Positions 4,933-6,941 of a DNA stretch of 6,941 nt are shown here, in pieces. A program made the position numbers and the translations under genes. Each line of letters opens with the position of its first letter. Positions within the stretch are counted from its first letter, which is position 1. The notes under the pieces are model-generated. The model had not been told where the DNA came from. It did not search any database and saw only the letters and a program-made list of their open reading frames with translations. Source of the DNA: a virus (Duplodnaviria > Heunggongvirae > Uroviricota > Caudoviricetes); IMG/VR virus record IMGVR_UViG_2541047442_000018, one strand, 5' to 3'.

Positions 4933-4991
4933 TTATACTCATTGCATTGTCAGAAATAGTTATCCATTAAAGGCTGGCTATTCCAAACAGG

Positions 4992-5019
4992 ATGTTGATT
5001 ACAAAAATGTAATCAACAT
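4992..5019. promoter_or_regulatory. perfect 12-bp inverted repeat (ATGTTGATTACA-N4-TGTAATCAACAT), candidate operator upstream of the AcfC-like gene
   Basis: Seen in sequence: arms at 4992..5003 and 5008..5019 are exact reverse complements with a 4-nt spacer (AAAA). It lies about 165 bp upstream of ATG 5184 in an AT-rich stretch that also contains a perfect TATAAT (5045..5050) and TTGACT (5065..5070). No T-run follows on either strand, so it is not a terminator. Confidence 0.4.
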
Positions 5020-5183
5020 GTAAGGTTTATACTCTTCAATATGCGTATAATTTTCCTTATTTTGTTGACTTTAAATAACAAGCTATGCACGAGGTAAAGT
5101 CGGATAAGTTTATCTGGATGTAATATATATTATTTGTAGTGTTTATAACTTTATTTCATGATAACCAATAAAAGGAGTTTTTT

Positions 5184-5942
5184 ATGAGGAACATAATGGC
5201 AGGTTTTTTAATATTCCTGTCTTCTGCTGCTTATGCTGATATCAATCTGTATGGTCCTGGTGGCCCGCATACAGCCTTGCTTGATGCAGCCAAACTTTAT
5301 GCCGAAAAAACAGGTATTATAGTGAACGTTCATTACGGCCCACAGAACAAATGGAATGAAGATGCCAAAAAAAATGCAGATATCTTGTTTGGCGCATCAG
5401 AACAATCTGCTCTGGCTATCATTCGGGACCATAAAGACAGCTTCAGTGAAAAAGATATTCAGCCTCTTTATCTGCGAAAAAGTATTTTACTGGTAAAGAA
5501 AGGTAATCCTAAAAATATCCGGAGTATTGACGACCTGACCAGACCTGGGATTGGCGTAATTGTTAATGATGGTGGTGGTACCAGTAATACATCAGGCACT
5601 GGCGTCTGGGAAGATATTGCCGGACGTAAAGGGAATATAGAAACTGTCGCCGCAATCCGAAAAAATATTATTTTATATGCGCCCAATAGCGGAACTGCAC
5701 GTAAGGCTCTTGAGAATCAGCCTGGAGCAGATGTCTGGATAACCTGGGCTGACTGGGCAGCCAGTAATCCAGAAATTGGTGATGTCGTGGAAATAGCGCC
5801 AGACTACGTGATATGGCGTGATATGAACATTACAGTACGTCAGGATGCAAATGATGAAACCCGTCGATTTGCAGAATGGCTACAAACCGATGAAGCGGCG
5901 CCTGCATTCAAAAAATATGGCTGGACCAGGAAAGGCACTTGA
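5184..5942 (+). CDS. AcfC-like periplasmic solute-binding protein (ModA/PBP2 superfamily), secreted
   Basis: Seen in sequence: SD AAGGAG (5172..5177) 6 nt before ATG 5184, and a signal peptide MRNIMAGFLIFLSSAAYA. Recall: the mature start DINLYGPGGPH and the GxG-rich binding loop NDGGGTSNTSGTG fit the AcfC (accessory colonization factor) / molybdate-sulfate-binding fold. The gene is visibly AT-richer than the phage core genes. No ABC permease or ATPase gene is adjacent. Confidence 0.85.
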   Translation: MRNIMAGFLIFLSSAAYADINLYGPGGPHTALLDAAKLYAEKTGIIVNVHYGPQNKWNEDAKKNADILFGASEQSALAIIRDHKDSFSEKDIQPLYLRKSILLVKKGNPKNIRSIDDLTRPGIGVIVNDGGGTSNTSGTGVWEDIAGRKGNIETVAAIRKNIILYAPNSGTARKALENQPGADVWITWADWAASNPEIGDVVEIAPDYVIWRDMNITVRQDANDETRRFAEWLQTDEAAPAFKKYGWTRKGT

Positions 5943-5943
5943 C

Positions 5944-5976
5944 ATCCTCGTCCTTCAGGACGTGGATTCTTTTTCC
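5944..5976 (+). terminator. rho-independent terminator of the AcfC-like gene
   Basis: Seen in sequence: 10-bp stem ATCCTCGTCC / GGACGTGGAT (one mismatch), loop TTCA, then TCTTTTTCC, starting 2 nt after the stop codon. Confidence 0.6.
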
Positions 5977-6061
5977 GGATGCCGCGCCAGCGGCATGTAG
6001 GGGCAGCTCACAAAACGGAAAAAATTGTACGCTAAGCCTCGCCAGGTGAACTGAATTCATT

Positions 6062-6085
6062 CCGATATGGGAATTCCCATATCGG
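6062..6085. other. perfect 24-bp palindrome CCGATATGGGAATTCCCATATCGG, function unknown
   Basis: Seen in sequence: fully self-complementary over 24 bp. It lies between the AcfC terminator and the hok leader, about 46 bp upstream of the inferred hok mRNA 5' end. No T-run follows on either strand. The sequence is certain; the function is not. Confidence 0.5.
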
Positions 6086-6130
6086 GCGAAAACGGTTTGC
6101 TGTAACGGCAGAGTTAAGTAGGATTGCTGC

Positions 6131-6220
6131 GGGTGCTTGAGGCTATCTGCCTCGGGCATGAACACCAACGGCAGATAGATAAAAGCCCCACCCGACTATA
6201 AATCGAAGTGAGGCCCCTAT
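6131..6220 (+). promoter_or_regulatory. hok mRNA 5' leader with tac/ucb-like alternative hairpins
   Basis: Seen in sequence: the leader begins GGGTGCTTGAGG (6131..6142), which is complementary to a 3' segment at 6483..6495. Overlapping alternative pairings are GAGGC/GCCTC (6138..6152) and ATCTGCC/GGCAGAT (6144..6176). Recall: this matches the plasmid R1 hok leader architecture, with compensatory base changes. Confidence 0.5.
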
Positions 6221-6228
6221 ATGCTCGT
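6180..6228 (-). ncRNA. sok: sok-like antisense RNA (approximate boundaries)
   Basis: Seen in sequence: minus-strand -35 TTGACC (complement of 6259..6264). Minus-strand hairpin GCCTCAC / GTGGGGC (complement of 6209..6215 and 6185..6191) followed by a T-run (complement of 6181..6184). The transcript would be antisense to the upstream SD (GTGAGG 6208..6213) and ATG 6221. The -10 is poor and the ends are not determinable by eye. Confidence 0.35.
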
Positions 6229-6277
6229 CACATATAGATTGCCTCTTACGGACCGAAAGGTCAAGGAGAAGCAGGCT

Positions 6278-6433
6278 ATGAAGCAGCAAAAGGCGATGTT
6301 AATCGCCCTGATCGTCATCTGTTTAATCGTCATAGTGACGGCACTGGTAACGAGGAAAGACCTCTGCGAGGTACGAATCCGAACCGGCCAGACGGAGGTC
6401 GCTGTCTTCGTAGACTACGAATCTGAGAAGTAA
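6278..6433 (+). CDS. hok: Hok/Gef-family type I toxin (51 aa membrane peptide)
   Basis: Seen in sequence: SD AAGGAG (6263..6268), ATG 6278, product MKQQKAMLIALIVICLIVIVTALVTRKDLCEVRIRTGQTEVAVFVDYESEK with one transmembrane helix and the conserved TRKDLCE motif. Recall: near-identical to E. coli HokD/HokC. The ORF-track start at 6221 is an in-frame upstream ATG in the mok position. Confidence 0.9.
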   Translation: MKQQKAMLIALIVICLIVIVTALVTRKDLCEVRIRTGQTEVAVFVDYESEK

Positions 6434-6439
6434 GAGACC

Positions 6440-6500
6440 AAGCGGGGGAGTAATCTCCCGCCACCTCTGATGTGTCAGGCATCCTCAACGCACCCGCGCT
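6440..6500 (+). other. hok mRNA 3' element (fbi-like): hairpin plus segment complementary to the mRNA 5' end
   Basis: Seen in sequence: hairpin GGGAG-TAAT-CTCCC (6446..6459). CCTCAACGCACCC (6483..6495) is the reverse complement of the leader start GGGTGCTTGAGG except for one extra base. Confidence 0.4.
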
Positions 6501-6552
6501 TTACCATACTGAAAATGCTGTTTGAATGTTCATCTCTGAAAGAGGACTATGA

Positions 6553-6897
6553 ATGAAAAAGGTATTGATTGCAGCACTTATTTCTGGTGTGTCTTTTGGC
6601 GCTTTTGCACAGCAGGGCGGTTTCCAAGGGCCTGAAGCAGAGCGTTCAACAGTAGCGCAGGCAAAAGAACTGAAGGATGATGCATGGGTTATCCTTGAAG
6701 GGAGCATCGTTAAAAAAGTGGGTGATGAACGTTATGAGTTTCGTGACAATAGCGGGACAATTGTCACGGATATCGATGACAGCATATGGGCCGGTCAGAA
6801 TGTTTCTCCGAAAGACAAAGTAAGAATTGAGGGTGAAATTGATAAAGACCTGAGCAGTGTTGAAGTGGATGTAAAGGCACTGAAATTATTAAAGTAA
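6553..6897 (+). CDS. YgiW/YdeI (BOF, bacterial OB-fold) family periplasmic protein (114 aa)
   Basis: Seen in sequence: SD GAGGA (6542..6546), ATG 6553, signal peptide MKKVLIAALISGVSFGAFA. Recall: the mature part (QQGGFQGP...DDAWVILEGSIVKKVGDERYEFRDNSGTIVTDIDDSIW...KDKVRIEGEIDKDLSSVEVDVKAL) matches the YgiW/VisP/YdeI pattern closely. Confidence 0.9.
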   Translation: MKKVLIAALISGVSFGAFAQQGGFQGPEAERSTVAQAKELKDDAWVILEGSIVKKVGDERYEFRDNSGTIVTDIDDSIWAGQNVSPKDKVRIEGEIDKDLSSVEVDVKALKLLK

Positions 6898-6913
6898 CCG
6901 TCCCAGCTTGCTA

Positions 6914-6941
6914 AGCCCGTCTTACTGACGGGTTTTCTGTT
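6914..6941 (+). terminator. rho-independent terminator after the YgiW-like gene
   Basis: Seen in sequence: stem CCCGTC (6916..6921) / GACGGG (6927..6932), loop TTACT, then TTTTCTGTT to the window end. Confidence 0.6.

Follow-up and report, generated by a model that had tools for sequence, protein, structure and literature searches.

The DNA considered here is a stretch of 6,941 nucleotides, IMG/VR virus record IMGVR_UViG_2541047442_000018 (called the window below), of which positions 4933–6941 had been described in an earlier note as one cargo block of three envelope-targeted functions lying downstream of phage replication genes. Three open reading frames (ORFs) are found there on the plus strand, and the families to which they had been assigned (an AcfC-like binding protein, a Hok toxin with its sok region and a YgiW/BOF protein) were confirmed by Pfam, Rfam and structure matches. 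The first, paa (also adfO; 5184–5942), encodes a 252-amino-acid protein of the AcfC/PEB3 family with a substrate-binding fold, already published as an adherence-associated factor. It matches Pfam SBP_bac_11 (PF13531) at E=5.5e-34 and can be aligned almost from end to end with PEB3 (3fir_A, E=1.2e-81) and AcfC (4jb7_A, E=3.5e-81), both of known structure. Its DNA does not differ from Sakai ECs_1772 (‘Paa/adherence factor AdfO’) and the exact protein, named ‘AcfC family adhesin Paa’, occurs in at least 1000 contigs. From its family and from the literature, in which an adfO mutant is credited with reduced adherence to HeLa cells (Ho et al. 2008, as cited in PMC8565820), Paa, with its putative N-terminal signal peptide, is probably an exported binding protein of the PEB3/AcfC type tied to adherence. 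The second gene, hok (6278–6433), is called ckf in the O-island 57 (OI-57) literature and hokD by the Prokaryotic Genome Annotation Pipeline (PGAP); its product matches PF01848 (E=6.2e-21, 74 bits against a cut-off of 22) and also the NCBIfam Hok family (E=2.9e-13), although the 49.4 bits of the latter match lie under the curated cut-off of 73. The third, ygiW (6553–6897; a phage gene, L0136 of 933W), encodes a 114-amino-acid protein of the BOF/YgiW stress-tolerance family, which has an oligonucleotide/oligosaccharide-binding (OB) fold (PF04076, E=5e-33, 113.7 bits against a cut-off of 25.8; NF033674, 136.4 bits against 35; TIGR00156, 110.8 bits against 108.15; PDB 1nnx, YgiW itself, E=3.3e-29). 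Its N-terminus (MKKVLIAALISGVSFGAFA/QQ), as judged from the translation, resembles a Sec signal peptide with an AxA cleavage site, and family and literature together suggest a periplasmic OB-fold protein of the stress-tolerance kind. Each ORF is preceded at 7–10 nt by its own Shine–Dalgarno motif (AAGGAG for paa, GAGG/AAGGAG for mok/hok and AGAGGA for ygiW), as had been claimed.

The window is the entire contig AVSF01000054.1 (6,941 bp) of the draft assembly GCA_000462725.2, the two sequences being identical, and both window ends are therefore assembly breaks. Comparison with known prophages divides this contig between two parents. Positions 1–6505 are 99.8% identical to Sp9 of E. coli O157:H7 Sakai (the same as CP-933O of EDL933 and as PPompW), a defective lambdoid prophage corresponding to OI-57, with no mismatch over 1–6409, 12 mismatches over 6410–6505 (all at 6410–6502) and loss of homology after 6505. 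Positions 6389–6941 show no mismatch to the hokW–L0136 segment of 933W, the Shiga toxin 2 (Stx2) phage resident in EDL933 and known as Sp5 in Sakai, and the 933W-type segment with ygiW (6506–6941, plus strand) is matched at 100% identity in EDL933, in Sakai Sp5 and in O111 genomes. Differences between the 933W allele and the window are found at 6327, 6373 and 6388, and upstream of these the two diverge strongly (84.9% identity over 6089–6409). T6327, A6373 and C6388 are thereby diagnostic of Sp9, and GT at 6410–6411, GA at 6414–6415, T6422 and A6428 of 933W, the two sets lying 22–100 nt apart. The sole stretch in which both parents match the window is 6389–6409, a crossover interval of 21 bp within the hok coding sequence, to the left of which the window is Sp9 and to the right of which it is 933W/Sp5. 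The Sp9-identical part comprises the repressor gene, cro, ydaT, O, P, DUF1627, a papH remnant, paa and the first 132 nt of hok, so that hok itself is a hybrid, of the Sp9 allele to 6409 and of the 933W allele from 6389, and the encoded Hok combines the N-terminal I17 of Sp9 with the C-terminal ...VFVDYESEK of HokW. Exact repeats of 45, 57 and 65 nt common to the same prophages adjoin the switch. The contig ends 3 bp short of the point (window position 6944) at which the 933W-type and the nin-type ygiW modules of EDL933 diverge.

The arrangement was found in no other sequence searched. Neither the 5,426 complete E. coli genomes nor the 50,697 phage records include one with at least 80% of 4933–6941 in one place; paa, hok and ygiW do not occur together in either collection, nor at any of the 80 IMG/VR hok loci described below. 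Among the complete genomes nothing matches 6320–6470 above 98.0% (the best is the 933W allele) and nothing spans 6200–6700 at 99% or more. An exact-protein look-up of the hybrid 70-amino-acid Mok gave no record, and the hybrid 51-amino-acid Hok (WP_199899979.1) is present in only two contigs, the longest of 6941 bp, which are taken to be the GenBank and RefSeq copies of the contig studied here. The parental Hok proteins are each found in at least 999 contigs, and the exact Paa and the exact YgiW each in about 1000 or more. Two other markers were tried and abandoned. A 71-nt junction pattern (6365–6435) was detected in 20 viral and 8 metagenome contigs and in none of the GTDB representative genomes, but it is not diagnostic because these are other natural hok alleles with a conserved core, none with the window flanks; and the reciprocal hybrid Hok (N-terminal part of 933W, C-terminus of Sp9), considered as a test of exchange, is the ubiquitous HokD of K-12 and hence uninformative.

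From these results we consider it very probable that the trio is a one-off junction of two independently known prophage modules and not a co-evolved or co-acting unit. One module would be the papH remnant with paa/adfO and hok, derived from Sp9/CP-933O, where the replication genes precede it and the rem-like, DUF968, RusA and Q genes follow; the other would be hokW/sokW with ygiW (L0136), derived from a Stx2 phage of the 933W/Sp5 type. The two would have been joined within the hok coding sequence by way of the 21 bp common to both alleles, and the join may have arisen at hok as a multicopy repeat, either because an assembler paired the wrong partners or by homologous exchange in one strain. 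The earlier note had named, as grounds for giving up the single block, that the three genes should never be syntenic in other genomes, and this is what was found, the trio being syntenic in no other sequence searched; the switch of parent inside hok tells against the block in the same way.

To see what natural hok genes have as neighbours, 80 IMG/VR loci encoding close Hok relatives were collected and the surrounding genes labelled by tblastn with marker proteins. At these loci hok lies almost always between O/P/DUF1627 and DUF968/RusA/Q, while its neighbours vary on both sides. Upstream there is DUF551 at 25 loci, an L0139-like gene at eight, Paa at five and DUF4014 at two, the rest having none of the markers; downstream there is YgiW at 20, a Rem-like gene at 20 (the Rem and Sp9_1774 labels combined), Q at 14 and an ECs_1775-like gene at nine, or none of these. 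The flanks combine freely: downstream of hok, four different kinds of gene are met at the DUF551 loci and three at the L0139-like loci. At four of the five Paa loci the gene after hok is Rem-like and the fifth is cut off by the contig end; Paa is upstream of hok at none of the 20 YgiW loci. The proposal of hok as a fixed point, with exchange of the cargo around it, thus finds good support in the survey, in which hok keeps its place between P and Q and the neighbours reassort.

Three IMG/VR contigs and one pair of O157 prophages may be described here. A 96-kb contig (IMGVR_UViG_2654588054_000006) combines a paa-hok-rem locus of the Sp9 type (contig positions 4765–18917) with a DUF551-hok-ygiW-DUF968 locus (51969–66121) about 47 kb away on the same strand, probably as a case of the insertion of one prophage in another that has been described for PPompW; deletion between these two hok copies would create paa-hok-ygiW. 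Two shorter contigs (5.2 and 4.3 kb) have the nin-type upstream context DUF1627-DUF4014-DUF551-hok joined to a ygiW allele of the 933W type (1 mismatch), the 5.2-kb one with L0135 downstream; either hok is the site of a further mosaic here, or these too are chimeras of assembly. In Sakai Sp14 (34461–35121) mok/hok stands directly 5' of DUF968 with 448 bp between them, too short for ygiW and the small gene that follows it, whereas a prophage of the same backbone in EDL933 carries ygiW there, which shows that the presence of ygiW varies at one site within O157.

As to how the join came about, misassembly is in our estimate slightly favoured over recombination in a single strain. The join is confined to one short draft contig, and both of its halves are 100% identical to prophages that are normally co-resident in one O157-type genome. 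The hok module is present in 6–9 copies per complete O157 genome among those listed, mostly seven. Public draft contigs that stop within hok, leaving partial proteins of 28, 33, 37 and 40 amino acids, number in the dozens to hundreds, and 135 contigs end inside ygiW with a 57-amino-acid partial protein; hok and ygiW are habitual break points of short-read assemblies. The right end of our contig, 3 bp before the two ygiW modules part, looks like a branch of an assembly graph. The left end coincides with no high-identity repeat common to Sp10, Sp14 or Sp15, and the 700 bp upstream of it are present once or twice per genome in many strains of enterohaemorrhagic E. coli (EHEC), which lends a repeat boundary at that end little support. 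A hok allele in Sakai that could have bridged the two parents (Sp9 to a third copy to 933W) was sought in Sp10, Sp14 and Sp15 (Sp3, Sp4, Sp6, Sp8, Sp11 and Sp12 being left out of this check) and not found in these three: Sp10 retains no more than a remnant of 122 nt, hok is missing from Sp15 and the Sp14 allele, at 84% identity, lacks the 71-mer.

Several observations nevertheless weigh against dismissing the trio as a trivial accident of this kind, and they leave the cause of the join divided nearly evenly between the two routes. The contig passes the exact repeats of 45–65 nt without switching, and the switch that it does show is clean and free of mixed sites. Since sibling prophages carry hok-ygiW between P and Q, paa-hok-ygiW would be a biologically plausible recombinant and could exist in unsampled strains. 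The separate expression of the three genes is something we infer. A real strain-specific recombinant, in which a homologous or short-homology exchange within hok gave a PPompW-type prophage the 3' end of a 933W-type hok together with ygiW in place of its own downstream arm, is accordingly a serious contender, to which we would give somewhat less than an even chance; such an exchange could have been RecA-dependent or could have used a prophage system of the Red/RecET type. The free reassortment of hok flanks among natural prophages speaks for it, as does the reassortment of polymorphisms within hok, K-12 HokD being what the two parental alleles give when combined the other way round. The 96-kb contig, with paa-hok and DUF551-hok-ygiW in the same orientation, would offer a ready substrate for deletion, and the hybrid hok mRNA retains its 5'–3' closing helix. 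PPompW has in addition been reported to recombine with other prophages (PMC8112680). These points have to be set against the single 6.9-kb draft contig in which the join is seen, its absence from the complete genomes and from some 1000 or more contigs with an identical Paa, and the perfect identity of both halves to co-resident O157 prophages, which a chimeric join would also give. RecA usually needs about 25 bp of homology, and the 21 bp held in common argue against a RecA exchange because they fall below this figure while identical blocks of 65, 57 and 45 bp adjoin. As the flank downstream of the 933W-type ygiW is not homologous to Sp9, no simple double crossover would lead back into that prophage. 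We are more hesitant still about the wider proposition that the junction is real, exchange within hok having made a new paa-hok-ygiW array in the PPompW prophage of one EHEC-type strain, and that hok/sok serves as a portable ‘linker’ of homology by which lambdoid prophages of one cell trade flanking cargo, which we regard as possible but less likely than not. An origin at an attachment (att) site by way of a Stx2a phage integrated in PPompW was also considered and rejected, as the records in question match the window only to 6505 and the switch lies inside hok and not at the att site.

By contrast with these two routes, the interpretation from which the work started, namely a conserved cargo operon of three envelope-targeted genes acting together (for example in envelope stress or phage exclusion) and acquired stepwise at a hotspot, appears extremely improbable. 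It has in its favour that the three genes are on one strand with their own ribosome-binding sites, that all three products are exported or membrane-inserted according to their families and that the interval between P and Q is a genuine cargo site. However, no other sequence searched carries the trio, the junction falls within hok, and paa travels alone: when window positions 4300–6100 were used as the query, plasmids of pig and cattle E. coli matched only about 4990–6010 (query positions 691/699–1710/1711) at 86–89% identity. This segment, the paa cassette (4990–6010, plus strand), comprises besides paa itself the AT-rich region before the gene and a short 3' tail; it is an independent cassette, the only part that the plasmids share. 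A role in phage defence was rejected, PADLOC finding no defence-system match for any of the three proteins. Signals at the gene ends hint at separate units, with sites of a hairpin and a T-run after paa and after ygiW and a folded transcript belonging to hok itself. The hairpin directly 3' of paa (5949–5972, plus strand), found by pattern scan, is a weak one with a T-rich tail, suggestive at most of a terminator as the count of such sites does not exceed that expected from shuffled sequence. The one after ygiW (6916–6941, plus strand), recognized by direct reading, has the form of an intrinsic terminator (CCCGTC-TTACT-GACGGG followed by TTTTCTGTT) and stands at the extreme end of the contig; it was not among the results of the scan, perhaps since it touches the sequence end. 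Base composition is not uniform either. The block as a whole is AT-richer than the phage core, as claimed (44.2% G+C against 49.4% for the remainder), which holds for the paa cassette (41.6%) and for ygiW (43.6%) but not for the hok module (52%), while the intergenic region 5024–5183 has only 26%. Together with the change of parent in hok and the plasmid copies of paa alone, these values do not agree with a uniform origin of the block. Nothing links the three genes functionally, and each would be expected to work alone.

The hok/sok module itself is complete. This type I toxin–antitoxin module occupies 6089–6505 on the plus strand, as judged by the extent of homology to the hok loci of 933W, Qin and other prophages. 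The mok leader frame (6221–6433, plus strand; 70 amino acids) has GAGG 7 nt upstream and contains hok in frame, a layout equivalent to that of the annotated mokW/hokW pair of 933W. The hok mRNA 5' leader (6131–6280, plus strand) is matched over the full length (1–157) of the Rfam family ‘sok’ (RF01794; 103.9 bits against a gathering threshold of 59, E=1.9e-23), and alignment with the annotated sokW of 933W places the putative Sok antisense RNA on the minus strand at about 6181–6229. The long-range fold-back (tac/fbi) expected of a hok mRNA is present in the predicted minimum-energy fold of 6129–6500 (−150.8 kcal/mol, z=−6.2 against shuffled sequences), in which 6129–6142 pairs with 6483–6497 as a 5'–3' closing helix. 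The Sp9-type allele lacks 21 nt (CATTACGCGTCCGGCAAGACG) at 6195/6196, within the region annotated as sokW, which are kept in 933W and in all eight other aligned hok alleles, and the Sok RNA of Sp9 would therefore be about 49 nt long and not about 71. For hokW–sokW of Sp5 the toxicity of Hok and its neutralization by Sok have been established experimentally (PMC8621323), and hokW was found to help with lysis and with the release of phage upon induction. By analogy with the family and the literature, the full-length hok mRNA of the window would be locked by its 5'–3' helix until unlocked by processing, Sok would block translation of mok and hence of hok, and loss of Sok would allow Hok to damage the inner membrane; the locus is likely to be self-contained and autonomous.

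Upstream of paa is a pseudogene of a papH-like minor pilin (4490–5023, plus strand), the bulk of which precedes position 4933 at which the cargo block had been taken to begin. The earlier reading of this region as a decayed fimbrial remnant was correct: the identical EDL933 sequence is labelled by RefSeq/PGAP as ‘fimbrial protein; frameshifted; internal stop’, and a repaired translation joining three frames matches PapH (PDB 2j2z_B) at E=6.6e-38. No intact pilin frame remains: the PapH-like gene is spread across three frames and interrupted by an internal stop, and the separate fragments gave no Pfam match even at E≤10. The remnant is specifically PapH-like, that is, of the minor pilin that terminates the pilus, and sits between the DUF1627 and small-ORF genes and the paa cassette; the plasmid copies of paa have only its last 30 bp or so in common with it. 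Between paa and hok, direct reading revealed a perfect 24-bp palindrome (CCGATATGGGAATTCCCATATCGG; 6060–6083) ending 6 bp 5' of the start of hok-module homology at 6089. It is present in Sp9 too and is a candidate protein-binding site, terminator or module boundary. The ‘toxin YdaT family’ gene after cro (1539–2090) is probably no toxin here, YdaT of CP-933P being described as functionally equivalent to CII, a regulator of lambda (PMC9986795).

The components of this region were thus known before: all three genes and both pairings, adfO-ckf and hokW-sokW/L0136, are already annotated or published. That lambdoid phages evolve by mosaic exchange at common modules is textbook knowledge, and the trio carries little biological weight. 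A short draft EHEC contig may show a gene order found nowhere else because hok, present about seven times per genome, tangles assemblies, and it is unsafe to infer a ‘cargo block’ or an operon from such a contig. What is modestly useful on the positive side is the survey, with its fixed position of hok between P and Q and reassorting neighbours on both sides, which would be relevant to the question of type I toxin–antitoxin loci as recombination anchors of prophages.

Comparison with known systems places each half of the contig in a natural context. Paa has the class II substrate-binding fold of PEB3 of Campylobacter jejuni and AcfC of Vibrio cholerae, but unlike these the E. coli protein is the product of a prophage or plasmid gene. 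The gene order of Sp9/CP-933O runs from the repressor gene through cro, ydaT, DnaT-like O, P, DUF1627, a small ORF, the papH pseudogene and paa to hok, continued rightward by a rem-like gene, ECs_1775, DUF968, RusA and a Q-like antiterminator. The claim that the block lies between the replication genes and Q is therefore right for paa-hok, this pair standing in Sp9 between O/P/DUF1627 and DUF968-RusA-Q. The Sp9/CP-933O/PPompW prophage has adfO (z2053, ECs_1772) and ckf/hok (z2054, ECs_1773), and window positions 1–6409 equal it base for base; the adfO and ckf genes of OI-57 are reported always to co-occur (PMC8565820). The hok gene of Sp9 ends in ...VFTAYEPEE and is followed by the rem-like gene, whereas that of the window ends in ...VFVDYESEK and is followed by ygiW.

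The latter order is that of 933W/Sp5, in which hokW/sokW next to L0136 is annotated and published (PMC8621323). There hokW-sokW and the ygiW-like L0136 lie near attR, after Ant-TraR-Ea22-L0139 and before L0135/L0134; unlike the window, this module is outside the P–Q interval, has no paa upstream and differs in the 5' half of hok and in the mok leader. Sibling lambdoid prophages (e.g. EDL933 CP120944 at 2.84 Mb, and many IMG/VR contigs) with the order DUF4014-DUF551-hok-ygiW-hypothetical gene-DUF968-RusA-Q have in common with the window a backbone of YdaT, DnaT-like O, P and DUF1627, and carry hok-ygiW between P and Q. They also have the DUF968, RusA and Q-like genes, whereas the contig studied here is without the Q side, and 5' of hok they have DUF551 or an L0139-like gene, never paa. 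Over 6389–6941 their ygiW segment shows 12 mismatches and is thus an allele of 97.8% identity. In Qin, a cryptic prophage of K-12, the order is relB-relE-hokD-rem-ydfU(DUF968)-ydfT(Q), in which the position of hok relative to rem, ydfU and the Q-like gene is that of Sp9. The Sp9 region 3' of hok (hok-ECs_1774-ECs_1775-DUF968) is colinear with Qin at 85% identity, which upholds the comparison with relBE-hokD drawn in the earlier note, and hokD itself is 93.8% identical to window positions 6264–6505. Qin differs in having lost its replication genes, in lacking ygiW and in carrying relBE as the upstream cargo in place of paa. The P–Q interval is thus a cargo (moron) site for paa-hok in Sp9, for hok-ygiW in the sibling prophages and for hokD in Qin.

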